Shown: positions 3,054 through 53,781 of the stretch, piece after piece
Numbering within the stretch: the stretch's first letter is position 1
How the letters are laid out: each line of letters begins with the position of its first letter
Source: Dehalococcoidales bacterium
GTDB lineage: Bacteria > Chloroflexota > Dehalococcoidia > Dehalococcoidales > UBA2162
Direction: 5' to 3'
NCBI GenBank assembly: GCA_034432095.1
Contig: DAOUCV010000021.1
Location: 4,262-68,261 of the forward strand
DNA length: 64,000 bases
Made by a program: the position numbers and the translations under genes
The notes under the pieces: model-generated
Databases searched by the model: none
What the model was told of the DNA's origin: nothing
The model's input: the letters and a program-made list of their open reading frames with translations, nothing else

Positions 3054-4849
3054 CCGAGTACCCCTACGAAGTATAGGTTATAGGCAGCATGAACTATAGA
3101 GCCAATGGTGATGGCTAACGGATAATATTTTGTGCCTAGGTGCTGCGTTATCAGGCTCACAACGGAAGTGCTGACGGCATGGAGGACAAGGGGCATTACC
3201 CACAACCCACCTCCAAAGACCGCAGAGATAAAAGCTGACTTAGAGACCACGGCTAATGCCAACAAGAGGAGCATCTTCTCGCCGGAAAAGAACCCCAGTG
3301 CCGAAAGTGCTGATAGCCTCAATACTTCTATCTTCGTCTTAACAATCCCGTTCTTCAGGAGGACGAATACGACGGCCGACTTGGCCAGCTCTTCTATCGT
3401 GGCTGATATGATGACCAGGAACCATAAGGAGGAGGGTATCGGCATATTACTGGCAAAGACAATTGATGTCAACTGCGCTATGAAGACTACGGGCAACAGA
3501 AAGAAATTTGATAGAAAGGTAGAAAGGTTCAGATGATTTCTGTCTACCACCAGGTCTATTGCCTCTGCTATCTTTACGTGTAACGGTTTGAAACCCATTA
3601 GGTATTCTTCGTTTAAGACACGTGTCCCGATGAACATTGCCTGGAGGAATATCAGGTACAATGGCACGGTAGCTAGAAAGTACTCTTTGGCGGCTATTGC
3701 CTCACCCCGGTACATTTCTACGGCAAGGGTCAGGGGTGAAATGTAGCTGAGGTTGCTAACCCCGGTAAGCAGAGCCGGGACGACCAGGTAAGCCATAATG
3801 ACTGAGATCACCAGAACCGAGAAAAGAGTCAGGTCTCTGAAGGTTCGGTACATTAAGGCTACCACCATATAGGCCGAAAAGATAAGCAGTGCCACGGGTG
3901 TGAATATAGCCAGGCTCAGCAGAATGTTTCCCCCCATTATCAGTGTCATCACAGTAATGACAATCCACGAGTACACCAGATAAGGAAGCATCTTGCCTAG
4001 AATGACCTGTAAGTGTGAGACCGGGGCAGATAATAGGATGACGAGTTTTCGACTTACCCGTTCCTCAGTGAAACTGCTGGCAAAGAACACGGCAACGAAT
4101 AGAATCGGCACGACGTAAGAAAAGACTAACATCACCTGAGCCAGAGGCATCGGCGGGGGCGTCAGCGATGGGATAATAATGTCCGGTTCCGACAGTACAA
4201 CTTCTTTCAGTTTTGCTAAGCCTCCATTCTCAAGAGTATCCAGCTGTTGCCTGACTTTGGCATCTATTACATCAGGCGCTGATAATGCCGGCTCCGACAG
4301 ACCAACGGAAACGGCGGGTGCCGATTCACCGCTTGCGGGCGGTTCTGGCGATAGTGGCGCCTGAGTATCTTCTTGCGGCGGTTCCCCGCCGATACTCAGG
4401 CCGGGCTCAGGTCTGTCAAGTGAAACGACTTCAACGCGAAGAGGAAAGGCGCGCTCACGCTGGTATTGTTTGGCTATTCTGAGTAAGTCCTGCTTTGCCA
4501 GGTATTCTAGCAGGGTCTCTTTGACATATTGCGACCGTCCGTCATCTCGAGCAGTAACCCCGTTTTCATCAACATATGCATCCAGAGTCCGTTGGTTCAG
4601 CATGACATGACCCTGTTCAGGGTCAAGCCTAATTACCTGAAACCGCTGGTCAACAATAGCCGGGGCATCGAAGGATATACCAACAGTATAAAGTGTCTTG
4701 CCAGGAACCATACCCTGATGATAGACTAGGTAGGAGGTAATGATGGCTAGCAGGACTATGGCTAGTATTACAAACTTCGAACGACCACCGAAGCGGAGCC
4801 TCAGGCGGGTGAGTTCCCATTTCGAAATCGTCAAGATACCCTTAATCAT
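3050..4849 (-). CDS. ABC-2 type permease fused to a C-terminal PrsW-like intramembrane protease domain
   Basis: The N-terminal part has ABC-2 features (WELTRLRLRF, TEERVSRKLVILLSAPVSHLQVILGKML). The last ~155 aa carry the four PrsW (M82) motifs in order: IEELAKS, GFFSGEK, HAVSTS, HAAYNLYF. Confidence 0.7.
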   Translation of the reverse strand: MIKGILTISKWELTRLRLRFGGRSKFVILAIVLLAIITSYLVYHQGMVPGKTLYTVGISFDAPAIVDQRFQVIRLDPEQGHVMLNQRTLDAYVDENGVTARDDGRSQYVKETLLEYLAKQDLLRIAKQYQRERAFPLRVEVVSLDRPEPGLSIGGEPPQEDTQAPLSPEPPASGESAPAVSVGLSEPALSAPDVIDAKVRQQLDTLENGGLAKLKEVVLSEPDIIIPSLTPPPMPLAQVMLVFSYVVPILFVAVFFASSFTEERVSRKLVILLSAPVSHLQVILGKMLPYLVYSWIVITVMTLIMGGNILLSLAIFTPVALLIFSAYMVVALMYRTFRDLTLFSVLVISVIMAYLVVPALLTGVSNLSYISPLTLAVEMYRGEAIAAKEYFLATVPLYLIFLQAMFIGTRVLNEEYLMGFKPLHVKIAEAIDLVVDRNHLNLSTFLSNFFLLPVVFIAQLTSIVFASNMPIPSSLWFLVIISATIEELAKSAVVFVLLKNGIVKTKIEVLRLSALSALGFFSGEKMLLLLALAVVSKSAFISAVFGGGLWVMPLVLHAVSTSVVSLITQHLGTKYYPLAITIGSIVHAAYNLYFVGVLG

Positions 4850-5926: not shown

Positions 5927-7756
5927 TTAGTAGCCCATGGACTTCCTCAGGTCTTTGTCAATCCAGACAAACTGATTCCAGTGGTAGTTCCCCCAGTAGC
6001 CTATAAAGACTTCACCAGAGTAGTTCTTCAGCCAGGGCCACCACATAGTATAAGTTGGGTAAAAGGGGGTCGGAATACAATATGCCTGCTCAATCAAATA
6101 CATACACAGCGGCCGGCATAATTCCATGGAGGCCCGGAAGTCAGTAATAGCCAGTGATTTTACTTTCTTGGCTGTTTCGTCTACGTAAGGCTCATTGATA
6201 AGACTGGCGTTCACCCAGTTTCTCGCAGCATAGAGTGACTGCTCCGGATATGAGGAATTCGGGGAGGTACCGATAGCAATCATTTCGTAAGTAATGCTGA
6301 AAGCGCGGCCTATAAGTGCGCCGAAATCTGGAACAACATCCATCTCCAGGTTAATATTGACCTTAGCCCACAGGTCCTTGATTATCGAGTAGTAGTCGAC
6401 TGCGTCCTGAGTGAGAGTCAGTTTGGCTTTGAAGCCGGTGGGATAGCCTGCCTCGGCCAGCAGTTTTTTTGCTTTCTCCGGATTATAGGTGTACAGTTCT
6501 TTTATCAGGTCGGTGCAATCCGGGTCATCGACACTGACATAGAGCGGCTCATAACCTTTAACATTAAAATAAGGCCAGCTGATGATATCGCCAAGGCCCT
6601 GGTATAAGGTTTTGTTTATCGTGTTAAAGTCCGTAGCCATCAGCAGCGCCCGGCGGACCCGGACATCATTATAAGGTGCCTGAGTTGTCTTCATGAATAT
6701 CGGATTAACACGCCATTTGCCGCGTGGCGCGGACTTGAGTTGGGGGGCGGTCTTCAGCATCAGGTCTTTATCTTCCATATTGAGACCACCGAGCTGGTCG
6801 ATCGTGCCTGTCCTCAACGCTGCCTGTGTAGTAGAAGCATCTGGCACAATGATGAACTTGAAAGTATCAACGTAGGGTAACTGGTTGCCCTTGCCGGGAC
6901 CAACCGGGTCTTTCATCCAGTAATTGGGATTCCTGTCCATTCGAACCATGTTACCGGGAATGTAATCGGTAACCACGAAGGGTCCCGTACCGACGGAATA
7001 CCTCCAGTTCGTGCAGGACTCATATCCGTATTTATTCCACAGTTCCGGTGGCATAACACGACAGCAGAGGTTCTCCCTCATTATCGCATCAAGGTGGTCT
7101 TCATACTTGTGAGTGACTTCGAACGTGTTTGGCCCAGTCTTGACTGCCGTTGGGTAGCGGACATTCGGATATAGCTGCCAGTTCTGGGCGTTCTCGTTTT
7201 TGATAATCAGGTTCCAAGTCCAGACACAGTCATCGACGGTCATTTCCCTGCCACCGACCATGCGGCTGGCTTCGCTGTCGAAAAGGGCATAGTGGACACC
7301 CTTACGAATCGTGAAACGTGTGGTAACTTCTTTGCCATCGGGACTGATTTCCCACGAATAATCTTCGGCTAGATAGCCTGTGTTAAAAGCAGGAATGTTG
7401 GTGCTCATACCCCAGTCTGTTAAACCCTCACCGTAACCGCCAGCGGGTCCTTTTGCCCAGTTTCCATCAACCATTCTCTGGTGGTCTTGTTCCTGGGGCC
7501 AGGAGGCACCGAAACTGATTAAATCCCAGTTTGGGTCGCCCACCAAGGCGACGGTAATCGTGCCACCATACTTTGGCACTTCCGGCCCGGCTGACACCAC
7601 CTCTTTCTCTTCCGCTACTTTTTCTTCCTCGGCTTTTACTACCGTTGTCTTCCCAATTTCCTCTTCCTTCGCCACTTGCTTTGGGGCACAGGATGCTATC
7701 ACCAATGATAATGCCATCAGACAACTCACTATCACCCAGGTAAAGTTCTTTTTCAA
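5927..7756 (-). CDS. ABC transporter substrate-binding lipoprotein, family 5 (peptide/nickel/opine type), paralogue 1
   Basis: Signal peptide plus lipobox (LSLVIASCAPK), an acidic EEEKVAEEKE linker, and a DppA/OppA-like body. C-terminus KSMGY is shared with the two paralogues. TTG start after GAGGTG. Confidence 0.85.
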   Translation of the reverse strand: MKKNFTWVIVSCLMALSLVIASCAPKQVAKEEEIGKTTVVKAEEEKVAEEKEVVSAGPEVPKYGGTITVALVGDPNWDLISFGASWPQEQDHQRMVDGNWAKGPAGGYGEGLTDWGMSTNIPAFNTGYLAEDYSWEISPDGKEVTTRFTIRKGVHYALFDSEASRMVGGREMTVDDCVWTWNLIIKNENAQNWQLYPNVRYPTAVKTGPNTFEVTHKYEDHLDAIMRENLCCRVMPPELWNKYGYESCTNWRYSVGTGPFVVTDYIPGNMVRMDRNPNYWMKDPVGPGKGNQLPYVDTFKFIIVPDASTTQAALRTGTIDQLGGLNMEDKDLMLKTAPQLKSAPRGKWRVNPIFMKTTQAPYNDVRVRRALLMATDFNTINKTLYQGLGDIISWPYFNVKGYEPLYVSVDDPDCTDLIKELYTYNPEKAKKLLAEAGYPTGFKAKLTLTQDAVDYYSIIKDLWAKVNINLEMDVVPDFGALIGRAFSITYEMIAIGTSPNSSYPEQSLYAARNWVNASLINEPYVDETAKKVKSLAITDFRASMELCRPLCMYLIEQAYCIPTPFYPTYTMWWPWLKNYSGEVFIGYWGNYHWNQFVWIDKDLRKSMGY

Positions 7757-7874
7757 TTGTTATTTCACCTCGCTAATAAGTCTTTTCTGCATATTTTAGT
7801 GTATTTGACCCTCGTCTTTTGCCATTTTCAGTTGCCTATCTCAACGGCGCACCTCCTTCTCTCTATCAGACTGG

Positions 7875-7925
7875 AAAAGGGGATGAACGACCGCTGTATG
7901 AATTAGCGGTTCAAATGCCCCTTTA
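7875..7925 (-). promoter_or_regulatory. terminator-like hairpin inside the SBP1 5' leader (candidate attenuator)
   Basis: The sense strand reads AAAGGGGCAttTGAACCGC...GCGGTcgttcatCCCCTTTTcc. The same two-helix architecture recurs in the SBP2 leader, with the outer helix changed on both strands. Confidence 0.5.
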
Positions 7926-7993
7926 TCCACAACGTCCTTTCTCTCCATCTTTATGTGATTCCCACTTTTTCTATGCATGTAGAGTACTCTAGT

Positions 7994-8023
7994 ATTATCC
8001 CTATTATCCCTGAAATTTGTCAA
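7994..8023 (-). promoter_or_regulatory. sigma70-like promoter of SBP1
   Basis: On the minus strand: TTGACA (8023-8018), 18-nt spacer, GATAAT (7999-7994). It lies about 240 nt upstream of the start codon. Confidence 0.5.
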
Positions 8024-8095
8024 GAATAGTCAAGCCCCCATAATCCGTGGATTTTTGAAAAAGGTAGGGATCAGGAGGATAAAGGTGGAGGCCAT

Positions 8096-9598
8096 CTACG
8101 GTCTCGTGGCCCAGTCACGGGCACGCTCCACTGCTCGTTTCCAGTCCGCGTAAAGGGTCTCCCGTTTATCCGGGGACATTTTAGGCTCGTAGCTGGTGGA
8201 GCTCTGCCATTGCTGTGCGATTTCATCGGTGCTGTGCCATAGCCCCACGCTCAGACCGGCCAGGTAGGCGGCCCCCAGCGCGGTAGTCTCGGCCAGACAA
8301 GCCCGCTGTACAGGGATACCTAATATATCTGCCTGGAACTGCATTAGCAGGTTGTTGCTGCTACCACCGCCATCCACACGTAATACCGGGACTTCCAAGT
8401 GTGCCTCGGCTTTCATGGTATCAATGACGTCGCGGGCCTGGTAGGCAATGGACTCCAGCACCGCCCGGGCGATGTGTCCCTTTTGGCTGCCTCTAGTAAT
8501 GCCTACCATAGTACCCCGGGCGTACATGTCCCAGTAAGGGGCTCCCAGCCCTACCAGGGCGGGGACGAAGTAAACCCCACCGTTGTCCGGTACACTCGCA
8601 GCTAGGGTTTCCACTTCAGCGGCTGTCTTTATCAGCCCGAGTCCGTCGCGCAACCACTGGACGGCTGCTCCTGTAATGAAGATGCTCCCTTCCAGGGCAT
8701 AGGCCACCTTATCTCCCAGACCCCAGGCGGGAGTAGTTATCAGTCCGGCACGGGAAAAGACCGGCCTATCACCAGTGTTGACGAGGACGAACGAGCCAGT
8801 GCCGTAAGTGTTCTTGGCCATGCCCTTTTGATGGCAGGCCTGGCCGAAGAGCGCTGCCTGCTGGTCGCCAGCGATACCCGCGATGGGAATGCGGGCATTT
8901 CCCAAAAGCCCGGCGTTGGTTTCCCCAAAAATCCGACTGGAAGACAGGACTTCAGGCAGCATCACCTTCGGGATGTCCAGCAGGTCAAGGAGCTCTTGGT
9001 CCCATTGCAATGTATTGATGTTGAACAGCATGGTACGGCTGGCATTGCTGTAATCGGTAATATGGGTCCTGCCCCCGGTGAAGTTCCAGACAAGCCAGCT
9101 ATCAATCGTCCCGCAGACCAGGTCACCCCTTTCGGCGCGGTGCTGTCCGTCGGGGATATTATCCAGCAGCCAGCGGATTTTCGTGGCAGAAAAATAGGCA
9201 TCAATAGGGAGTCCCGTCCTCTGCTGGATGAAGGGCTCTAGTCCTTTTTGTTTGAGCTCCTCACACAGTGCCGCGGTACGCCGGCATTGCCAGACGATGG
9301 CGTTGTAAACCGGCCTACCGCTACTACGCTCCCAGACCACGACTGTCTCGCGCTGGTTGGTGATGCCCAGCCCTTTGACGGCGGCAATCGGCACGCCTGC
9401 CTGGCGCATTACTTCCCCGGCCAGGGCGATGCAGTTCTGGAGAATCTCAATAGGGTCGTGCTCCACCCAGCCCGGCCGGGGAAAAATCTGGCGTATCTCG
9501 CGATAAGCGCGGGAGACTACCCTGCCGCTGGCATCGAAGAGCAAGACCGTGCTGCCTGTGGTCCCTTGGTCGATGGCCAAAATGTAGCCTGTTGACAT
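8096..9598 (-). CDS. glpK: glycerol kinase
   Basis: 500 aa. N-terminus [18 protein letters not shown] and GlpK-typical blocks throughout ([31 protein letters not shown]). Confidence 0.95.
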
Positions 9599-31548: not shown

Positions 31549-32517
31549 TTAAGCCTGGATACTGCACATAAATCCGTACGATTCTACCAGCCGTTTCATA
31601 TCCTGTAAGACACTGTCCGGAACGAGGGGAATGTGAGCTATAGGGTAGGGGCGGTTTAAGCTATCGTATCTTGTCTTCCCCAGATGGTGCAAAGGTATAA
31701 GGTGCACCTCAACTACTGAAGATAAACCCTGAGCAAACTCACAGATAGCTCTGATATTCTCTTCTGAGTCGTTGTAACCCGGGATTACCGGTACCCTTAT
31801 ATAGAGGGGGATATTTCTCTGGGAAACCGCCCGAGCGTTACTCAGAATTAGCTTGTTTGAGACGCCTGTCAATTCCTTATGTCTTTCTGGGTCCATATGC
31901 TTTATGTCCCAGAGAAAGAAATCGATGTAGGGCAACATCTGCTCAATGCTTGCCCAGGGGACATGACCGCAGGTATCAATTCCGACATTGATACCTTCTT
32001 CTTTCAAGCCCTGAAGCAATTTCAGCGTGAAGTCCGGGTTCAATAAGGGCTCTCCCCCCGAAAGGATGACTCCACCACCGGAGTGTCTATAAAAAGCTAT
32101 ATCCTTTTTCGCCTCCTCAAGCAACTCTTCAACAGTCATAGGTCGTCCCAGAAGCTTTATGGCTTCTGAGCTGCAGACTTCAGCACACTTGCCACAGTTG
32201 TTGCATAGAGACCGGTCAATACTTATTGTCCCATCTGCTAAGCTAATAGCATTCAGGGGGCATGCCGGGACACACTGGTCACAATGGATACATTTGCTCG
32301 GGTAGATAGCAATCTCAGGTTCAGCCTTTTGAGACTCTGGCGTCGAGCACCACAAACAGCGCAATGGGCACCCTTTGAAGTAGATGACGGTTCGTAGTCC
32401 AGGGCCATTATGAATAGTCATCCTGCTTATGGTCAGAACAAGCCGCTTTTGAGTAGCACTTTTTGACCTCATGATGGCCTGGTTCCAAATGCTGTTACCC
32501 GGTAAATGACGGGACAT
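31549..32517 (-). CDS. glycyl-radical enzyme activating enzyme (radical SAM, with two auxiliary ferredoxin-type clusters)
   Basis: GPGLRTVIYFKGCPLRCLWCSTPE (CX3CX2C), CIHCDQCVPACP, CNNCGKCAEVC and GGGVILSGGEP. ATG 32517 lies 1 nt after the GRE stop; the ORF is open to 32592, and ATG 32472 is an alternative. Confidence 0.85.
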   Translation of the reverse strand: MSRHLPGNSIWNQAIMRSKSATQKRLVLTISRMTIHNGPGLRTVIYFKGCPLRCLWCSTPESQKAEPEIAIYPSKCIHCDQCVPACPLNAISLADGTISIDRSLCNNCGKCAEVCSSEAIKLLGRPMTVEELLEEAKKDIAFYRHSGGGVILSGGEPLLNPDFTLKLLQGLKEEGINVGIDTCGHVPWASIEQMLPYIDFFLWDIKHMDPERHKELTGVSNKLILSNARAVSQRNIPLYIRVPVIPGYNDSEENIRAICEFAQGLSSVVEVHLIPLHHLGKTRYDSLNRPYPIAHIPLVPDSVLQDMKRLVESYGFMCSIQA

Positions 32518-32518
32518 T

Positions 32519-35047
32519 CTACCAGCCTTGGTGCTCTGTACGACTAATAATGTCCAGCTGTGCCGCTTCATCGAGGTCGACAAAGTAGGCAACGGTGCTA
32601 GCTACTCGAACCATCAGGTCCCTGTAGTTCTCTGGCTCCTTCATCGCCTTGCGCAATAGATCGCTTGAAATTACATTGAACTGGAAGTGATATACGCCCA
32701 GTTCCTCGACAGTTCTGAGAAAGGCTACGAAGTTGTCTATATCGCGATCAGTGGCAAGTAGCTGGGGACTTAGCCTCATATTCATTGGGCCGCCCAGGGC
32801 AAGCCGGTGCGTTGGCAGTTTGCTTACCGACTTCATAACGGCCGTGGGGCCATTCCTGTCCACGCCCTGGGACGGGGACATGGTATCAGCCAGAGGCTTT
32901 GGGTGGATATGGCCGTTGGGTAAAGCGCCAACTGTTCGCCCTGCGATAACGTTACCTCCCGCAACCACAGTTTTACCAAGCCACTTGCCGCCCCACCACG
33001 GAAGCAGGTTTGCCTGCGTGTTAACCCAATCTACGGCGTCCTGCCAAGTGTCCATCACCCAGGCTGCCCAGCTATCGGCAAAGTCATCGTCATTACCATA
33101 CTTGGGCACACTATTGATGCAGAGTTGCCTTAGGTCCTCATAGCCCTCCCAGTTAGCCTTGATTGCCTCAAGCAACTGGTCCCAGGTGACCTTTTTGTCA
33201 CGGTAGATTAACTTGTCAATCACTCCCAGAGAGTCGGCAGTGTCAGCTAGGCCGGAGAGTAATATGCCATACGTTGTGTACCATGCGCCGCCCTGAGTAA
33301 TGTCGCGACCCCTCTGCAAAGGCCCTTCCGCAAGTGCAGAGCTAAATGGGGCGGGAAACCACATAGACTGAGCCTCTTTCAAATACTTCACGCCTTCAAC
33401 ATAATACTTTACCCAGTAGAACACCTGTTCCCGGAAAGCCCGCCGCACCGCTTCTATTGATTCAAAAGTCCTGGGATCGCCAGTCGCGGGTCCTATTTGT
33501 CTGCCGCATATGGCGCACTTCCCGTTGTTCAGTACTAGCTCCACGAACTTTGGTACAATATTATCTCCCTCCCAGTTATGAGCCATAGTAATGTGAGGCA
33601 GGTCGGTTGCTGAACACCCTATCAGAACATACTCTCGCCAATCCTCAATGGTCAAATCAGGGTAGCCCTTGGATAACATCTGGATCGCTTTGCGGTCACC
33701 ACAGAACTTGGGCTTGCCCCGACCAAGACGGATTACTTCAGCGGCTTTTCTTAAATACTTGTCGGGTGTGCCCTCCCATATCCTCATCGCTGTTTCTGGC
33801 TGGATTATGCTCAGTTGCTCCTCAGCTTCCAGACAGAGCATGGTAACTTCGTTACAGGCATCTTTGCCATCACGAGTTTGCCCCCCGATGGTTAGGGACT
33901 GGGTTGCCTCTCTGGCACAGTCAAGCTTGGTATAAAAACACATCAGGAGTTCCAGAGCCTCTTCATGAGTCATTGTCTTATCGTCGATAACCGATTTTTT
34001 GTAGAAGGGGTACATATACTGGTCAAAGCGTCCAAAGGAGTTTACCTCTCCAGCGAGTTCACAATTAACGATGACGTGTATCATCCAGTTGGACTGCACT
34101 GCTTCCCACCAGTCTCGGGCGGGGTTTGCCGGTACCCAGTCACAAACCTCGGCGATACGCTCGAGCTCACGCCTGCGTACGGGATTGACCTCTTTTGCCG
34201 CCATCTCTCGTGCTAGGTCGGCATACCGCTTGGAATATGCCATAGCCGCGTCTAGTGTGATAAGGACTGCTTTGTAGAAGTCTCTTCTCTCTTGCACTTC
34301 GAAGTGCGTATATGGCTCGTCAAGTTGAGCCAAGTACCACTCTACCTCTTCCTTTATGCCTTTGAGACCTTTGTGAAGAACCTTTTCATTGTTGGGCATC
34401 TGATGGCCAGCGTCTCTCCACATTGATACACCGGCGTGATTAGGAATATGCGAGCAAGAAGAAGTCGTTGCAAAAGATTTTTCCAGTAGTTCGGGATTGA
34501 GATTTTTCAGATTGTAGTCGAGCAGGGTCTTTCCTTTGAAGTAGGGGAAAAGCACTTCCCGGATCTCTTTCTTCTCTTCGGGATGAATTACGCAGTTGAA
34601 CCGGGTCTCAAAATTCTTGATTGCCTCATCAGCGTCAAGTTCCACCGTCGGGTCAAGTATGGGAGGTGCACACTCCGCCCGATGCTGGCCTGTGAATGAC
34701 TCCTGGATATCCCAAATGCTGGCCCCCGTCGGATGGCTAGTCAAACCGGAAATGGTAATACCCCGAACCTTGCTATTCACATTGCCTACAATGAGTTCCT
34801 CGTCCAGTATGTAGATGGTCTTATCTCTTAGATATGTCTCCAGGAAACGTGCGCGCTGAATGATTCTGGGCTCATCCTTATATTGCTCTAGGGTCTTCAT
34901 CTCAGCGCGAGCACGCTCCAAGCAGATCTCTGGCGTTTGGAGAGCACGTTGCTTTGCTTTCTTGATGCGCTCAGAATAGGTCGGCACGAAGAACTCCTGC
35001 CAGCTACCTACATCTTGAACCTTTGTGTTGCCTAATACAATCGCCAT
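32519..35047 (-). CDS. PFL2-type glycyl radical enzyme homologue lacking the conserved radical glycine
   Basis: 842 aa. GRE blocks are present: LTIGGQTRDGKDACNE, thiyl-loop candidate LIGC(478)SAT, VGALPNGH...PLADTMSPSQGVDRNGPTAV, and a C-terminal glycyl-radical domain ending DIISRTEHQGW. That domain reads RVAS(817)TVAYF instead of RV[AS]GY[ST]A. Confidence 0.85.
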   Translation of the reverse strand: MAIVLGNTKVQDVGSWQEFFVPTYSERIKKAKQRALQTPEICLERARAEMKTLEQYKDEPRIIQRARFLETYLRDKTIYILDEELIVGNVNSKVRGITISGLTSHPTGASIWDIQESFTGQHRAECAPPILDPTVELDADEAIKNFETRFNCVIHPEEKKEIREVLFPYFKGKTLLDYNLKNLNPELLEKSFATTSSCSHIPNHAGVSMWRDAGHQMPNNEKVLHKGLKGIKEEVEWYLAQLDEPYTHFEVQERRDFYKAVLITLDAAMAYSKRYADLAREMAAKEVNPVRRRELERIAEVCDWVPANPARDWWEAVQSNWMIHVIVNCELAGEVNSFGRFDQYMYPFYKKSVIDDKTMTHEEALELLMCFYTKLDCAREATQSLTIGGQTRDGKDACNEVTMLCLEAEEQLSIIQPETAMRIWEGTPDKYLRKAAEVIRLGRGKPKFCGDRKAIQMLSKGYPDLTIEDWREYVLIGCSATDLPHITMAHNWEGDNIVPKFVELVLNNGKCAICGRQIGPATGDPRTFESIEAVRRAFREQVFYWVKYYVEGVKYLKEAQSMWFPAPFSSALAEGPLQRGRDITQGGAWYTTYGILLSGLADTADSLGVIDKLIYRDKKVTWDQLLEAIKANWEGYEDLRQLCINSVPKYGNDDDFADSWAAWVMDTWQDAVDWVNTQANLLPWWGGKWLGKTVVAGGNVIAGRTVGALPNGHIHPKPLADTMSPSQGVDRNGPTAVMKSVSKLPTHRLALGGPMNMRLSPQLLATDRDIDNFVAFLRTVEELGVYHFQFNVISSDLLRKAMKEPENYRDLMVRVASTVAYFVDLDEAAQLDIISRTEHQGW

Positions 35048-35443: not shown

Positions 35444-37297
35444 CTAGTATCCCATAGACTTCTTCAGGTCCTGGTCAATCCAGCTGTACAGGTAGTAGTC
35501 AGCTCCGTTCCACAAACCTATTGACGTTTCACCGCTGTAACCCTTTAACCACGGCTGCCAGGCCCTGTACACATATGGTGTTGCGATCGGTATTATATAG
35601 CTCTGGTCAACAATGTATGGATAGACCTCCTTGATCAATCTGGCCTCTTCGGCCTTGTCGAACCAAGCGGCGGTGACATCCTCAAATGCCTTATCAATAC
35701 GTGGGTCATAAATATTGCCAGCGTTCACGGGCATTCCCGTCCTCCAAACGTAGAACTCGTATGGTGCCTCAGTCATCGTGTTCTGGAAGGCACATCCTGG
35801 ATATGTCCTCTTCGCGCCCACCAGCATAGACATATAGATACCATAGTCCAGCACTTGAATTTCCGCGTCAACGCCGATTTTAGCCCAGTCGGCTACAATT
35901 ATGGACAAGAAGTCCGCCTGGCCCAAGGTGCAAATTATACTGGTCTTAAAGCCATTGGGATAACCGGCTTCAGCCAGGAGCTGCTTTGCCTTATCCGGGT
36001 GATACTCAAATAGCTCCCTGGCTGACTGGGGATACTCCTCAAACGGGATGAACCACTGCTTAAGTTCTGGCAGTATTGGATAGGCGAATGTCTCAGCACG
36101 ACCCTTATAGTATTGGTCTTTTATTACCTGCCTATCTATAGCCATAGATAAGGCCCGCCGGACCTTGATGTCACTAAAAGGCGTCTGGTCCACCCTCATG
36201 TATATCGTCGAGGTCGCTTCAGCCAGATACTCTCGCCATTTCAGTTGTGGGGCAGTCCTCTTTAAAGACTCTGCAGTGTCAAATGCAAACTCCTCTTTGC
36301 CCAAACCGTCAACCGCGCCGGTGCGCAGGGCGGCTTGTCGGGTAGACGCATCTGGTATGACCAGTATCTTAGCGCCATCCGGATAGGGCATGGTGTCCTC
36401 TGGAAAAAGAGGATGCTTCCGCCAGTAGTTAGGATTCCTGACAAAGGTTGCCACAGAACCTCGGACGTAATCCGTCAGTATATATGGCCCAGTACCAACG
36501 TTATTTCTCCAATCACGCATGTCTCCGTATTTATCAATCACTTCATGCGGAATTACAAAGATACAATCACCAACTCTAAGCCATACTCTTGAGAACCATC
36601 CCGGCTTAGTCTTCACGACAACCGTCCACTTGTCAGGTGCTGTTACCGATTCTACAGACTGGTCATAGGGACAAAACATAGCTTGCGGACTCATGGGGTT
36701 TTTCCACATGCGCAGGAGGGAAAACACCACATCCTCAGCGTTCACCTCCCTACCACCCACCAGTCGGCTCGCCTCGCTGGCCGGGTTAAGTGCAAAGTGA
36801 ACCCCTTTGCGCATGTGGAGGACAATGGTGGTTTGATCCGGCCACTCCCAGCTTTCAGCCAAAAGGGGAGCCGGATAGAATCGGGGCTCCGAAGAACGGA
36901 GAAAAGGGAATTCACCAGTGCCTGATGGCCCCCTTGTATAGTCACCGGTGAGTGGTTCCTCACAAGTGAGAGAATTGGCAGTACACTGTACATTCAGGCG
37001 GTAAGCATCATCAAAGTGCTCTGGGTCTGATGCCAACGCCCACTTCAATATTCCGCCATATTTAGGCTTTTCCACCAATTTCTCAACTACTGTCCCATCC
37101 CCTTTCTTCAGCCTCAACTTCACCATCTCCGGTCCCGCTTCCTCTTCGACTGCTTCTTCCACTGGTTTTTCTTCCGCTACTACTACTTCTGCTTTCCCGA
37201 CCTCTACTTTTTTCGCCGCTTCTTTCGGGGCACAGGATGCTATCACCAGAGATAGCACCATCAGACTGCTCACCACCACCCACACGACCTTTTTCAT
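35444..37297 (-). CDS. ABC transporter substrate-binding lipoprotein, family 5, paralogue 2
   Basis: MKKVVWVVVSSLMVLSLVIASCAPKE lipobox, an acidic linker, and C-terminus DLKKSMGY. RBS GAGGAGG. Confidence 0.85.
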   Translation of the reverse strand: MKKVVWVVVSSLMVLSLVIASCAPKEAAKKVEVGKAEVVVAEEKPVEEAVEEEAGPEMVKLRLKKGDGTVVEKLVEKPKYGGILKWALASDPEHFDDAYRLNVQCTANSLTCEEPLTGDYTRGPSGTGEFPFLRSSEPRFYPAPLLAESWEWPDQTTIVLHMRKGVHFALNPASEASRLVGGREVNAEDVVFSLLRMWKNPMSPQAMFCPYDQSVESVTAPDKWTVVVKTKPGWFSRVWLRVGDCIFVIPHEVIDKYGDMRDWRNNVGTGPYILTDYVRGSVATFVRNPNYWRKHPLFPEDTMPYPDGAKILVIPDASTRQAALRTGAVDGLGKEEFAFDTAESLKRTAPQLKWREYLAEATSTIYMRVDQTPFSDIKVRRALSMAIDRQVIKDQYYKGRAETFAYPILPELKQWFIPFEEYPQSARELFEYHPDKAKQLLAEAGYPNGFKTSIICTLGQADFLSIIVADWAKIGVDAEIQVLDYGIYMSMLVGAKRTYPGCAFQNTMTEAPYEFYVWRTGMPVNAGNIYDPRIDKAFEDVTAAWFDKAEEARLIKEVYPYIVDQSYIIPIATPYVYRAWQPWLKGYSGETSIGLWNGADYYLYSWIDQDLKKSMGY

Positions 37298-37413
37298 CTT
37301 GAGTTAACCTCCTCTCTTGGCACTGTAATGTCCTTGACTATTATCCTTTACCATTTCAGTTGTCTTGTCTCAGTAATGCACCTCCTTTGCCAAGAGATTG
37401 TCTCCATTAAACC

Positions 37414-37462
37414 AAAAGGACACCGGCAACCGCCATAATACTTAGCGGTTCTGATGTCCTTT
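37414..37462 (-). promoter_or_regulatory. terminator-like hairpin inside the SBP2 5' leader (candidate attenuator)
   Basis: The sense strand reads AAAGGACAtcaGAACCGC...GCGGTTgccggTGTCCTTTTggttt. The inner helix is identical to the SBP1 copy, and the outer helix is changed on both arms. Confidence 0.5.
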
Positions 37463-37521
37463 ATTGCATCGTCCTACCTCTCCGTCTTTAGGTGATTTTT
37501 ACCTTTTCTACTTGTGGCACC

Positions 37522-37550
37522 AGTTTAACCTTGTTCTCGGGATTTGTCAA
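37522..37550 (-). promoter_or_regulatory. sigma70-like promoter of SBP2
   Basis: On the minus strand: TTGACA (37550-37545), 17-nt spacer, TAAACT (37527-37522). Confidence 0.5.
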
Positions 37551-37802: not shown

Positions 37803-39029
37803 ATGGAGTTTAGAATGTCGCGAGAGCAGGAACTCTTCAAGAGGGCTTTGCGAGAGTACTGCCAGAAGAATGTTGAGCCCAGGGCCAGAGCCATAGACGA
37901 AGCCGAGGCTGGCATCCCTGATGACATCATAAAGGGGTTAGCTGAACTAGGTGTTTTCGGCTGCACTATCCCCGAGAAGTATGGCGGTTCGGCTTTGCCG
38001 GGTGAGGAGATGCAATATGCCAACATCGCCATCCAGGAATTGGGCTATGCTGAACTGAGCATGTCTCTCCCGGTTTACGCGTTGCTTACCATTGGTTGGG
38101 GAGGGATGTTCCTGAGTCTTTATGCTAACGAGGAAGTGAAAAGGGAAATATTACCCAGAATAGCTTCGGGTGAGTGGTCCTGGGGAATCAACGTTACTGA
38201 ACCAGGGGGAGGCTCGGATGTAGCCGCTATCAAGACTACAGCCATCAGAAAAGGAGACAAGTTCATCATAAATGGTGAGAAAGCCTATATCAGTTCGGTA
38301 GCCGAGTGTCAGGTGAGGGGAGGGGGACACTGTAGTCTCTTCGTTACCGACCCTGCCAAGGGTATCAGGGGCGGGATGACCCTTTTTGCCACAATACCAA
38401 ACCAGCTTAAGGGTATAACCAGCACCACCTACAAGGATATGGGGCGGATGGGTCTCTCTACCGGGGGATTCACCTATAAAGACACGGAGATTTCGGATAA
38501 GTATATCCTTGGCGAGGAAGGGAGGGGCTTCTACCGTTGTATGGAGGGCTTTAATATCGCCAGAGCCGTGGTTTCGGCTGCCTGTCTGGGTGGTGCTGAG
38601 AAAATGCTGGAAATAGCCGTTGAGTACGCTAGGCAGAGAAAGGCATTTGGTCGGCCGATAGGCAAGTTTCAAGGTGTATCTTTCATTCTAGCTGAGCTCC
38701 AGACCCGTCTGGACATGCTCAAACTCCTGCTGCAAAAGGGATGCTGGATGATAGATAAGTACTACAGCGACCCGGGCAGCTTCACCCAGAAAGAGATAAA
38801 TGTGGTCATTGCCCAGTGCAAGTGGCTGGCTCCCGAGCTGGCGGTGGAGGTTGCCAGGAGAGCCATCCAGATACTCGGTGGCTTTGGCTATACCAAAGAA
38901 TCTCCCCTCGAGATGGGCATGAGAGGGGCTATGTCCTACGTTGCCGGGGCTGAAGGAGCCGAGAATATCATGAAGCAGATTATTGCCAGAGACGCTTTTG
39001 GTGAAGAGTTCGTCGCCACCCGTCTATAA
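37803..39029 (+). CDS. acyl-CoA dehydrogenase
   Basis: 408 aa with an ACAD-typical N-terminus (REQELFKRALREYCQKNVEPRARAIDE...GIPDDIIKGLAELGVFG) and C-terminal QILGGFGYTKE. RBS AGGAGG. A TGcTATGAT extended -10 lies at 37751-37759. Confidence 0.9.
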   Translation: MEFRMSREQELFKRALREYCQKNVEPRARAIDEAEAGIPDDIIKGLAELGVFGCTIPEKYGGSALPGEEMQYANIAIQELGYAELSMSLPVYALLTIGWGGMFLSLYANEEVKREILPRIASGEWSWGINVTEPGGGSDVAAIKTTAIRKGDKFIINGEKAYISSVAECQVRGGGHCSLFVTDPAKGIRGGMTLFATIPNQLKGITSTTYKDMGRMGLSTGGFTYKDTEISDKYILGEEGRGFYRCMEGFNIARAVVSAACLGGAEKMLEIAVEYARQRKAFGRPIGKFQGVSFILAELQTRLDMLKLLLQKGCWMIDKYYSDPGSFTQKEINVVIAQCKWLAPELAVEVARRAIQILGGFGYTKESPLEMGMRGAMSYVAGAEGAENIMKQIIARDAFGEEFVATRL

Positions 39030-51820: not shown

Positions 51821-53659
51821 CTAGTAGCCCATGGACTTCTTCAGCGCCTGGTCTACCCAGATGTAGTAAAGGTGCAGTTGCTGGTCGTCACAACCGATGC
51901 TCCATTCACCTGAGTAGTTCTGCACCCAGGGCCACCACATGCGGTAAACCCGTGGGACTGGTAGCCATATTGCCACGCATTGCTCAAGAATGAAGGGCAC
52001 GACGGCTTTCAGCGTTGCGGCGTATTTTGCGTCATCCTTGCAAACGTACTTTCGCTGCTCGTTGTAGGCTGCCCTGGTAACCGGGTGCTCATAGTAGCTG
52101 AAGCAGTCAAAGCTCTCTTTACGGGTATTATGCATATCGTAGGGGAAGGGCGCTGTGGGTGACATGGTATAGATACCTTCATCATAAGACCTTGAACGCC
52201 TCATGCCGGTGAAAATGCTTATTTCAATTGGCTGAATCTCCAGGGTAACATTGACCTTAGCGAAGTATTCTTTAATTAGAGCGAGAAAGTCTGCATCACC
52301 GGGAGCGCAGACTATCTTGCATTTGAAGCCATTGGGGTAGCCGGCTTCTTTCAGCAATTGCTTTGCCTTGGTCAGGCTCTCCGGAGTATAGTAAAACAGT
52401 TCCTGGACGCCGCATCTTGAGTCGGGAGTTGTTGGCTCCTTTGGCATCTCCTCAAGCGGAGTATAGAAAGGCTCCCACGCCTTGTCTGGTGGGTATATCG
52501 CGGCTTGCAGGTCGGCATATCCACGATAGTAATCTTTTATCAGCTCCTGTTTGTTTATCACCAGGGTCATTGCCTGCCGGACCCGCAGGTCGTGCCAGGG
52601 CAGCTCCGGCTTGTCAACCCGGAAATACAGGTGGTTAGCCGAACCGGGGACTGTAGTGTACTTTAAGCTGGGGCACTGCTTCATAAGCGTCTCCCCGTCT
52701 TCCCAGGTCAGGGTTGCGCCTAGCGAGTAATCAAGCTTGCCGGTGCGAAATGCCGCCAGTTGAGTAGATTTGTCGGTTATGACGAGACCGTTAAGCGTGT
52801 CTATATAGGGTAGCTGATTCTCCGGGTGGAGTGGGTCGTACTGCCAGTAGTTTGGGTTCTTCTTATAAGTCAGTTGACTGTTCGGGATGTAGTCCGTCAG
52901 TATATATGCTCCAGTCCCGCAGACATTACGCCAGTCCCTCATATCCCCGTAAGTATCAACTACCTCTTTGGGATAATGGTATAACCAGCTAGCAGTATAG
53001 ATAACCTGTAACCCCTGTGACTGTGGGGGCACTTTAACCTGGAGGGTATACTTGTCAAGAGCAGTGGCAACAGGAGGGGGTTCCCCCGGGTCAAGTTTGG
53101 CCTTATGTGCCGTCGCTACGGCATCGGGTGACCACATGCGGTTGATGGTCCATGCCGCATCATAGGCGGTGAACTCCCGGCCATTTACCGGCGGCTTGTT
53201 CCACCAGTGGACTCCCTTTCGGATCTTGAATAGCAGGGTCTTATCATCGGGCATGCTCCAGCTTTCAGCCAACTGACCCGTCAACCGGCTGGAATAGCCG
53301 AGAAAACCGCCAATGCCAGCCTCTCCGGTTCCCTGAGGTGTCTGCTTCCAGTCTCCCATCAGCAACTCTTCGTTGCAGAGATAGAGCGTTGAACACTGCA
53401 CCATAAAAATGTAATAGGGGTCAAACCCCATCGGGTCAGAAGCTATAAAAGTGAACGTTCCTCCATACTTCGGCACTTCTGGAGGCAGAAGCTCCTCCTT
53501 TTCCGCCACCTTTTCTTCCGCCACTTTCTCCTCCTCCGCGGTTACTACTGTTGCTTTACCTACTTCCATTTCTTTCGCCGCTTCTTTCGGGGCGCAGGAG
53601 GCTATCACCAGGGATAGCACCATCAGGCCGCTCACCAGTATCCAGGTAATCTTCTTCAC
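51821..53659 (-). CDS. ABC transporter substrate-binding lipoprotein, family 5, paralogue 3
   Basis: MKKITWILVSGLMVLSLVIASCAPKE lipobox, an EEEKVAEEKVAEKE linker, and C-terminus ALKKSMGY. GTG start after AAAGGAGG. Confidence 0.85.
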   Translation of the reverse strand: MKKITWILVSGLMVLSLVIASCAPKEAAKEMEVGKATVVTAEEEKVAEEKVAEKEELLPPEVPKYGGTFTFIASDPMGFDPYYIFMVQCSTLYLCNEELLMGDWKQTPQGTGEAGIGGFLGYSSRLTGQLAESWSMPDDKTLLFKIRKGVHWWNKPPVNGREFTAYDAAWTINRMWSPDAVATAHKAKLDPGEPPPVATALDKYTLQVKVPPQSQGLQVIYTASWLYHYPKEVVDTYGDMRDWRNVCGTGAYILTDYIPNSQLTYKKNPNYWQYDPLHPENQLPYIDTLNGLVITDKSTQLAAFRTGKLDYSLGATLTWEDGETLMKQCPSLKYTTVPGSANHLYFRVDKPELPWHDLRVRQAMTLVINKQELIKDYYRGYADLQAAIYPPDKAWEPFYTPLEEMPKEPTTPDSRCGVQELFYYTPESLTKAKQLLKEAGYPNGFKCKIVCAPGDADFLALIKEYFAKVNVTLEIQPIEISIFTGMRRSRSYDEGIYTMSPTAPFPYDMHNTRKESFDCFSYYEHPVTRAAYNEQRKYVCKDDAKYAATLKAVVPFILEQCVAIWLPVPRVYRMWWPWVQNYSGEWSIGCDDQQLHLYYIWVDQALKKSMGY

Positions 53660-53751
53660 TCTGCTTTAACCTCCTTTCTCAGTCTGGCTGTAGTCTCTTG
53701 CGATTTTGTAACTCTTATCTCATCGGTGCACCTCCTTTTTTTTTGTTGAAT

Positions 53752-53781
53752 AGTCTAGTTTTTATTGTGGGGATTTGTCAA
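53752..53781 (-). promoter_or_regulatory. sigma70-like promoter of SBP3
   Basis: On the minus strand: TTGACA (53781-53776), 18-nt spacer, TAGACT (53757-53752). Confidence 0.5.

Follow-up and report, generated by a model that had tools for sequence, protein, structure and literature searches.

A covarying terminator-type hairpin beside a candidate ribosome start site in the 5′ leaders of Dehalococcoidia SBP_bac_5 genes

What is the function of the RNA that two rather dissimilar substrate-binding protein (SBP) genes share ahead of their start codons? The genes, SBP1 and SBP2, lie in a 64,000-nucleotide stretch of a Dehalococcoidales bacterium (GenBank assembly GCA_034432095.1, contig DAOUCV010000021.1, positions 4,262 to 68,261; this whole stretch is called the window below), and their leaders occupy positions 7757-8023 and 37298-37550, respectively, both on the minus strand. 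The original prediction, made from the letters of the window, described a conserved leader hairpin of the intrinsic-terminator type and proposed a riboswitch or attenuator in which an upstream AAGGAC repeat could act as antiterminator. Our analysis supports this interpretation in part: a selected terminator-type leader hairpin with homologues in other genomes was borne out, whereas the riboswitch half and the antiterminator were not. The Dehalococcoidia, subsurface bacteria that are abundant and for the most part uncultured, have reduced genomes and large families of orphan family-5 binding proteins, and to our knowledge almost nothing is known about how these proteins are regulated.

A 5′ block, a hairpin in two parts and a U-run are common to the two leaders, as had been described. 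Each begins with a promoter-like site on the minus strand, TTGACA-17-TAAACT at 37522-37550 for SBP2 (10 of 12 matches) and TTGACA-18-GATAAT at 7994-8023 for SBP1 (11 of 12 matches). These were the only gene-strand sites that a promoter scan called upstream of the SBP1 and SBP2 start codons, and no second site was called between the hairpin and the start codon of either gene. When aligned in sense orientation, the leaders are identical in 77% of the columns in a mosaic fashion: cTTGACAAAT, the block AATCACnTAAAGAnGGAGAGnnAGGACG, the hairpin core GAACCGCTAA…GCGGT, the U-run and a downstream AAGGAGGTGC element are kept, whereas the hairpin loop, the spacers and the flanks have diverged. Because conservation is mosaic, the likeness is best read as constraint rather than as a recent copy. 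Both AATCACnTAAAGAnGGAGAGnnAGGACG and GAACCGCTAAnTnnTAnnGCGGT occur exactly twice in the 64 kb, where 0.00 and 0.01 occurrences, respectively, are expected. The third paralogue, SBP3, lacks the hairpin module, in agreement with the original prediction. Its leader (53715-53781, minus strand) has the same promoter and the same downstream part, and TTGACA (53781-53776) is followed directly by the AAGGAGGTGC element with its start-stop mini-ORF (a minimal open reading frame; 53736-53715). The module is thus a clean indel of ~115 nt relative to the SBP3 leader.

The SBP2 hairpin (37415-37462, minus strand) has a predicted folding energy of -24 kcal/mol and consists of an outer helix (37462-37453 paired with 37424-37415) and an inner helix (37449-37444 paired with 37434-37429); that of SBP1 (7876-7924, minus strand) folds with -22 kcal/mol. 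The two leaders have an identical inner helix, ACCGC(U)/(R)GCGGU. In the outer helix both arms differ and yet still pair, AAAGGGG/CCCCUUU in SBP1 and AAAGGACAUC/GGUGUCCUUU in SBP2, and the differences include one true G-C to A-U exchange. The hairpin of SBP2 runs into the U-run UUUUGGUUU (37409-37417, minus strand; first run 37417-37414), whose column block is kept in alignment A8, and that of SBP1 into a short run of four U only, followed by CC (7875-7878, minus strand). Positions 37414 and 7875, singled out earlier as places to look for premature termination, are the last U of the first U-run in each leader. A stable G+C-containing hairpin followed by a U-run, the sequence signature of an intrinsic terminator, is therefore present.

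To find homologous leaders, related binding-protein loci were collected by an SBP alignment scan with one genome per species, which placed the window in the Dehalococcoidia (Chloroflexota) and returned 80 loci (given L numbers here, with a letter for individual copies). Contigs with SBP1 homologues were searched with an nhmmer profile of the two leaders, with the covariance models R1 and R2 and with a hairpin scan; R2 was run on both strands of 795 kb of related DNA. This model found 22 sense-strand copies (27-92 bits), all 22 of them between a promoter-like TTGACA…TAnnnT site and a Dehalococcoidia SBP_bac_5 gene, so homologous leaders, whose absence would have counted against the original prediction, do occur in other genomes. 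The remaining R2 matches (16-37 bits) were nearly all the reverse strand of the same near-palindromic hairpins, and no module was found in this DNA at Proteobacterial SBP loci or beside other kinds of gene. The same layout precedes related genes in about 20 relatives.

Covariation was tested on 19 copies aligned with MAFFT without any structure fitting, using a hand-written two-helix structure of 10 + 6 pairs. Standard pairs filled 91.3% of the cells as compared with 84.6 ± 1.0% in 500 shuffled controls, and both sides had changed at 12 of the 16 pairs (6.4 ± 1.6 in the shuffles). None of the 500 shuffles attained any of the five covariation measures, and pairing fell to 38-56% when the 3′ partner was slid by 1-3 columns. 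RNAalifold was concordant with this result. A T-run follows the hairpin in each copy, and the folding energies range from -17 to -36 kcal/mol. In L038, L092 and L093 the two helices are fused into one long perfect stem of quite different sequence, which is expected if the selected property is pairing before a U-run. Fold z-scores of the whole leaders were weak (-2.7 for SBP2 and -1.2 for SBP1), indicating that the signal is the hairpin and not a global fold. Because the upstream gene is divergent in SBP2, L092 and L093, the hairpin cannot be the terminator of that gene. The strong covariation, together with the hairpin and U-run, makes a selected, terminator-like RNA structure in these 5′ leaders a well-supported conclusion from sequence comparison.

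If the hairpin is a selected terminator, what would control it? From the predicted transcription start to the hairpin, SBP2, SBP1 and L085a, the closest relative of the window leaders (nhmmer E = 5e-23), have ~55 nt of purine-rich and almost unstructured RNA. Their folds (-3.1, -2.8 and -0.7 kcal/mol; z = -0.2, -0.9 and +1.2 against dinucleotide shuffles, respectively) contained no conserved structured ligand-binding domain 5′ of the hairpin or overlapping it, and in the window copies this segment is too short for an aptamer. Unstructured RNA of this kind suits the landing of a ribosome but would serve poorly as an aptamer. The proposed AAGGAC-repeat antiterminator also failed: it would set ~5 bp against a 16-bp hairpin and still leave a hairpin before the U-run. 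The AAGGAC block reads instead as a Shine-Dalgarno-like run plus spacer, and its likeness to the 5′ arm as that of two purine-rich stretches.

Comparison with known RNA families gave a similar picture. Consistent with the earlier failure to place the leaders in a familiar class, no Rfam 15 family matched at gathering score on the whole window or at E<=10 on both leaders, where the only hits were chance matches to eukaryotic long non-coding RNA, microRNA and small nucleolar RNA families and to one Salmonella small RNA (sRNA) family (E=10). At gathering score, 12 related loci gave nothing relevant. T-box leaders contain a Stem I with specifier loop and a T-box sequence that pairs with the tRNA acceptor end; no T-box match was found at E<=10, and the pre-terminator leader measures only ~55 nt. 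The PyrR families had no Rfam match at E<=10. ANTAR targets are two tandem hexaloop hairpins, and here we saw a single two-part hairpin with a 9-20 nt loop, no tandem hexaloop pair and no relevant Rfam match at E<=10. Three further candidates were rejected: CsrA-type GGA sites, since the GGA motifs vary across copies; a K-turn formed from UGAUGA, for which the partner strand is absent; and pairing of the SBP2 5′ arm with CUGGUGCC, which lies at or before the predicted transcription start.

The conserved 5′ sequence can be read as a ribosome-binding site and start codon, which the original prediction had missed. It comprises a Shine-Dalgarno-like run, a spacer of 5-10 nt and a start codon. In SBP2, GGAGAGG (37477-37483, minus strand) lies 7 nt upstream of an AUG that opens the mini-ORF AUG CAA UAA (37461-37469, minus strand; AUG 37469-37467), whose stop abuts the base of the hairpin. 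In SBP1, GGAGAG (7941-7946, minus strand) lies 8 nt upstream of the UUG of the mini-ORF UUG UGG AUA AAG GGG CAU UUG AAC CGC UAA (7903-7932, minus strand), which stops in the hairpin loop. Farther 5′ stands a conserved motif, box1, with AAUCACC in SBP2 (37491-37497, minus strand), AAUCACA in SBP1 (7954-7960, minus strand) and the family consensus A-A-y-C-A-y-C-U-U.

These features were surveyed in 21 distinct copies. A start codon was found in 20 of the 21: ATG in 18, TTG in one (SBP1) and GTG in one (L005), with ATA at the same position in L047; it always lies 5-14 nt ahead of the first paired base of the hairpin. The Shine-Dalgarno-like run pairs with the 3′ end of 16S rRNA at a median of -6.4 kcal/mol, a strength equalled by 5% of the other windows in the same leaders, and reaches -6 kcal/mol or lower in 11 of the 21 copies as compared with 8.7% of the controls. 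The values were -7.9 kcal/mol in SBP2 and -6.4 kcal/mol in SBP1, against medians of -5.1 and -2.9 elsewhere in the respective leaders.

The mini-ORFs range from 2 to >25 codons. Their stop precedes the hairpin in SBP2 (peptide MQ), L087b (MMK) and L039 (MK) and falls in the loop in SBP1, L040, L016, L030 and L008b; in further copies it lies beyond the hairpin. In SBP2 the stop codon (37463-37461) overlaps the first paired A (37462), and L087b, L095b and L039 share this near-immediate stop, from which SBP1 differs with its ORF extending to UAA in the loop. The peptides have nothing in common beyond what the hairpin nucleotides force, and neither regulatory codons nor a conserved arrest peptide were found in the mini-ORFs. 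The only informative pair, L016 and L030, differs by a synonymous UUA to CUA change. A conserved leader peptide (…GH-x-NR-stop) was considered and rejected, since the similarity follows the hairpin nucleotides and the frame is lost in SBP2, L085a and L087. Absence of peptide conservation fits a function by occupancy rather than by peptide.

We tentatively propose, at somewhat less than even confidence, that the module is a ribosome-coupled transcription attenuator of the Escherichia coli ampC kind and is not read by a metabolite. The proposal rests on a covarying terminator-type hairpin in the leader, a Shine-Dalgarno sequence and start codon at a fixed, footprint-sized distance from it, peptides that are not conserved and the absence of an aptamer. 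Transcription would begin at the TTGACA promoter and yield ~45-50 nt of unstructured, purine-rich RNA, then the Shine-Dalgarno-like run and the start codon; 7-8 nt past this codon would come the 5′ arm of the strong hairpin (-22 to -24 kcal/mol), followed by the U-run. With an empty start site the hairpin would form, and RNA polymerase, we infer, would terminate ~115 nt before the SBP start codon. An initiating ribosome protects mRNA to ~+15 from the A of the AUG, as is known from toeprinting, and the footprint would here extend over the A-tract and 3-8 pairs at the start of the outer helix. A 30S subunit or 70S ribosome on the mini-ORF would thus cover the base of the 5′ arm and block the full hairpin at the U-run, allowing readthrough into the SBP gene; the inner helix alone, at least 10 nt from the U-run, should not terminate. 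In this proposal the mini-ORF would be translated and would act by being occupied, not via its peptide. At a guess, the physiological signal would be ribosome availability or translation-initiation capacity.

Most relatives appear to have a second layer, in which a pyrimidine stretch would pair with the start codon, the Shine-Dalgarno run and the A-rich base of the 5′ arm. Outside the window-type copies this stretch precedes the Shine-Dalgarno run and consists of box1 (yCAUCUU), 3 nt and CCUUC or CCUCC; the main-clade box1 is CCAUCUU, with predicted pairing to the start-codon region. The resulting hairpin, P0, has three parts, CCUUC with the Shine-Dalgarno sequence (GGAGG), CAUC(UU) with (AA)GAUG at the start codon, and a U-rich run with the A-rich base of the terminator 5′ arm. 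As modelled, this hairpin would conceal the start site and also draw the base of the terminator into a rival pairing. Box1 persists in the window copies (AAUCACC and AAUCACA), which have lost the CCUUC part and form no P0.

Several points weigh against a ribosome-read attenuator. Five of the 21 copies have the hairpin but a poor start site, with a weak or absent Shine-Dalgarno sequence in L087a, L095a, L005 and L085a and ATA in L047. U-runs are poor in SBP1 (UUUUCC), L062b, L008b, L016 and L030, and a simple terminator scan called neither window hairpin, probably owing to their interrupted stems and loops longer than 8 nt. The inner-helix loop ARnUAnUAY is kept in about half of the copies (9-10), which neither a plain terminator nor a ribosome model accounts for. 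P0 of the main clade could itself be an antiterminator, so that translation would lead to termination. Finally, all relatives are metagenome-assembled genomes (MAGs), and the promoters and transcription starts are predictions.

The conserved loop speaks for a trans-acting factor, either a protein that binds the RNA and favours or blocks termination, or a small ligand of the internal loop and loop of the hairpin, with the Shine-Dalgarno run and AUG being incidental or secondary. This idea is the nearest surviving form of the earlier riboswitch proposal. Inner helix and loop are kept across SBPs that are only 35-40% identical, as the motif GAACCGCUAA...AUACAGCGGU with the variants UAAAUAGUAC and AGAUAGUAC and a duplicated GUGAUACA in L085a (L085:160-200, where the loop motif is in tandem as GUGAUACA-A-GUGAUACA); a plain terminator needs no loop sequence, and the module is limited to one gene family. 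However, 4-6 copies (L038, L092, L093, L009, L008b and L039) have a quite different inner helix and loop in the same layout, no multi-helix junction or conserved unpaired core is present, Rfam gave no match at E<=10 with T-box and PyrR included, and no candidate regulator gene was seen beside the loci. We consider such a factor unlikely. It is similarly doubtful that the hairpin is a recognition element for a Dehalococcoidia protein or small molecule and represents a new class of regulatory RNA within a layered SBP leader system. The layers would be the mini-ORF with the terminator, an optional 120-nt RNA and a nearly universal start-stop mini-ORF (both described below), and it is a speculative extension, which we also think improbable, that they are shuffled among SBP_bac_5 paralogues and set which substrates are scavenged.

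A reversed, trp-like polarity would make P0 the antiterminator: a translating ribosome would open P0 and leave, the terminator would form, and the SBP gene would be off during translation and on during starvation. Starvation-induced synthesis of an uptake protein makes biological sense. Of 11 main-clade copies, 7 to 8 have P0 in the same topology as their minimum-free-energy fold, with energies of -12 to -15 kcal/mol (L038, L054, L092, L093, L009, L016, L030 and partly L008b); L038 and L054 differ by one compensatory U-A to C-G exchange; and in the predicted co-transcriptional intermediate of most copies, upstream sequence pairs with the 5′ arm over its first 10 nt. Against this stand the window copies and L085a, which have no P0 (-0.7 to -3.1 kcal/mol, z ~0), and the modest z-scores of the individual P0 folds (-0.35 to -2.6); the MAFFT alignment leaves the two P0 strands out of structural register. 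Of the 16 terminator pairs P0 overlaps only ~6, and strand displacement should therefore work in favour of the terminator; complementarity between pyrimidine and purine stretches also arises easily from composition alone. We regard reversed polarity as decidedly unlikely.

Quite improbable, too, in our estimation, is a partly efficient terminator that does not switch and, behind a strong consensus promoter, serves as a constant damper or insulator that sets the SBP transcript level, or else as a protective stem-loop. The imperfect U-runs and the copies that keep the hairpin without a start site are consistent with this idea. So is the free gain and loss of the module among close orthologues, which suggests that it is dispensable. 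Among SBP1 orthologues it is present in L087 and L095 (76-77% identical), L092 (72%) and L093 (69%), and absent from L085b (85%), L096 (77%), L086 (76%), L094 (75%) and L089 (72%); L085 has it before a neighbouring SBP gene (L085a) instead. The SBP2 protein and leader are identical on a metagenome contig from the JGI, and the closest SBP2 orthologue (L001, MAG W403; 76% identical, in the same operon with a glycyl-radical enzyme and its activase) has no module and an unrelated leader. Leader cassettes thus seem to be exchanged among paralogues. A damper leaves unexplained the Shine-Dalgarno run and start codon at a fixed distance, as well as box1, and a weaker promoter would be a simpler route to lower expression.

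It is very unlikely that the leader is an sRNA gene of ~100 nt derived from the 5′ untranslated region, whose CU-rich box1/CCUUC would act in trans on the Shine-Dalgarno sequences of other mRNAs. A conserved pyrimidine 'seed', terminator hairpin and U-tail have the appropriate layout, but in 795 kb the element occurs in SBP leaders only, the CCUUC part is missing from the window copies, and the nearest partner of the seed is the adjacent Shine-Dalgarno sequence in cis. Least credible, and already largely refuted, is a palindrome of the MITE (miniature inverted-repeat transposable element) or REP (repetitive extragenic palindromic) type that landed in the leaders by chance: patchiness among orthologues, a palindromic core and a clean indel relative to SBP3 and L085b/c would fit, but orientation and slot, between promoter and start-stop element, do not vary among the 22 copies, there are 2 copies in the window and 22 in 795 kb rather than many at unrelated sites in either orientation, no copies elsewhere, terminal repeats or target duplications were found, and the compensatory changes signify selection on pairing.

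The module is not the only conserved element of these leaders. Between it and the SBP start codon lies a second element composed of AAGGAGGUG, 5-7 nt, UUG or AUG, 0-2 sense codons and a stop, in forms such as UUG AGA UAG, UUG UAG and AUG UGA. It is found in nearly all of these leaders, including those of SBP3 and L085b that have no hairpin, and by a strict pattern its density was 0.119 per kb upstream of SBP genes as compared with 0.005 elsewhere in the loci (24x). The window contains three minus-strand copies: AGGAGGUGCGCCG UUG AGA UAG in SBP1 (7836-7857); a degenerate one in SBP2 (37356-37387), where AAGGAGGUG and 5 nt are followed by CUG AGA CAA GAC AAC UGA with a CUG start and 4 sense codons; and that of SBP3 (53715-53736). 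In relatives, copies were located at L085:240-262 and 2368-2390, L087:2412-2436 and 4691-4716, L009:3909-3928, L038:3923-3942, L041:3877, L047:3886, L062:3882, L092:~8885-8910 and L093:~8897-8920.

In five Dehalococcoidia SBP leaders outside the window, a structured-looking RNA of ~120 nt separates the module from the start-stop ORF (L005:3722-3862; L062:1318-1452 and 3752-3888; L038:3748-3878; L039:3775-3895). Its cores GGGGGAAACCAGGGUGCUGA, CAGCUUAAAU and CCCCUCCCGUGUCCGGAGCCCUGGGGGUAAUCGGG are highly conserved, and the consensus has 38 pairs with a covarying closing helix. Rfam gave no match to it, either at gathering score or at E<=10. This element looks like a better riboswitch candidate than the hairpin module of the window.

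Leaders without the module can hold other structures. In L001 a long inverted repeat, ATCGCATATCATGTACGAT…ATCGTATGCGAT (L001:3750-3830), lies just after the TTGACA promoter and resembles a repressor operator; this operon may be under protein rather than RNA control. In L089 a different long stem (ACCGGUAGUGAUAAUAUGAGCUGCCUUACCGGU … GCAGCU; L089:2240-2330) precedes a start-stop UUG GAA UAA. The leaders of this SBP gene family appear to be highly modular. Two further searches added little: a metagenome scan for the exact 5′ block pattern CnTAAAGAnGGAGAGnnAGGACG gave three chance matches in unrelated, apparently coding DNA, in a collection that also missed the JGI contig with SBP2, and a protein-profile search with the N-terminal cassette shared by the SBPs was uninformative, returning short fragments only and missing SBP2 itself.

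The opposite strand of the SBP2 leader also contains a promoter-like site (TTGGCA-16-TATTAT, 37317-37344(+), 10 of 12 matches), from which transcription would cross the hairpin in the direction of the divergently oriented acyl-CoA dehydrogenase gene at 37803; on this strand the hairpin is followed by UUUAUUG. The site is probably a chance match (0.6 expected per region), and the hairpin could act bidirectionally.

The genes downstream of the leaders are all on the minus strand: SBP1 (5927-7756; 609 aa, Pfam SBP_bac_5), SBP2 (35444-37297; 617 aa, an SBP_bac_5 lipoprotein) and SBP3 (51821-53659; ~610 aa, Pfam SBP_bac_5). Their proteins are only 36-40% identical overall. The signal peptide and linker (MKK..W..VS.LM.LSLVIASCAPK.AAKE.EVGK..VV.AEE) are 62-67% identical, the DNA of the compared 5′ coding ends (37298-37120(-), 7756-7580(-) and 53659-53480(-)) shows synonymous differences, and the cTTGACAAAT promoter is common to all three (8023, 37550 and 53781). 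This pattern suggests that a cassette of promoter, leader and signal peptide has been kept alike among the paralogues by recombination or selection. Directly downstream of SBP2, after a spacer of 396 nt, are genes for an 842-aa glycyl-radical enzyme (32519-35047, minus strand) and its radical-SAM activase (31549-32592, minus strand), an arrangement (31549-35047(-)) that also occurs in L001 at 5993-9490. The enzyme is of the eliminase/dehydratase type. Since it is about equally similar to the structures of choline TMA-lyase, isethionate sulfite-lyase, hydroxyproline dehydratase and glycerol dehydratase (E 1e-125 to 1e-107), its substrate cannot be assigned.

A leader module that is conserved and has no Rfam counterpart offers a way into SBP regulation and marks binding-protein genes that would be controlled after initiation. 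Model R2 allows whole genomes to be searched for it, and short, prematurely ended transcripts are predicted at specified positions. The start-stop mini-ORF and the 120-nt RNA that accompany it point to more than one undescribed element in these leaders. If the ribosome-occupancy reading is true, the ampC type of mechanism, which is rarely documented, would reach into a distant phylum and into nutrient uptake.

How do these leaders compare with known systems? They resemble the platforms of terminator-type riboswitches in having a covarying terminator hairpin and U-run in a 5′ leader, but differ in that an aptamer is absent, the upstream RNA of the window copies is unstructured and Rfam 15 gave no match. 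Start-stop and minimal ORFs are known from ribosome profiling of bacterial 5′ untranslated regions as a strong Shine-Dalgarno sequence, a start codon, 0-2 sense codons and a stop, generally of unknown function. The second leader element (AAGGAGGUG, 5 nt, UUG AGA UAG) and the shortest ORFs of the module are of this form, with the difference that one of them is here physically coupled to a terminator.

For the ampC leader of E. coli, Jaurin et al. reportedly proposed in 1981 that a bound ribosome keeps the hairpin from folding and that readthrough thereby tracks the availability of ribosomes. That leader has a Shine-Dalgarno sequence, an AUG and a near-immediate stop directly before an intrinsic terminator, and the same arrangement is found in SBP2, L087b (AUG AUG AAA UAA) and L039 (AUG AAA UGA). 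There is no sequence relationship between the two systems. The leaders analysed here have a two-part hairpin with a conserved loop, many have longer ORFs, most add a hairpin that would sequester the Shine-Dalgarno sequence, the downstream genes encode transporter binding proteins and the host belongs to the Chloroflexota. Ribosome-mediated leader-peptide attenuators include trp, his, leu and pyrBI as well as the drug-sensing ermK, vmlR and bmrCD (PMC5418344). Like these, the module has a short leader ORF upstream of an intrinsic terminator or overlapping it, and the position of a ribosome would decide whether the terminator forms. It differs from the classical examples in having no runs of regulatory codons, no conserved peptide, variable ORF lengths and stop positions and, in the window copies, no clear 2:3 antiterminator. 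Taken together, the proposed Dehalococcoidia-specific attenuator family tied to SBP_bac_5 genes is probably new, and its class of mechanism is probably a familiar one.

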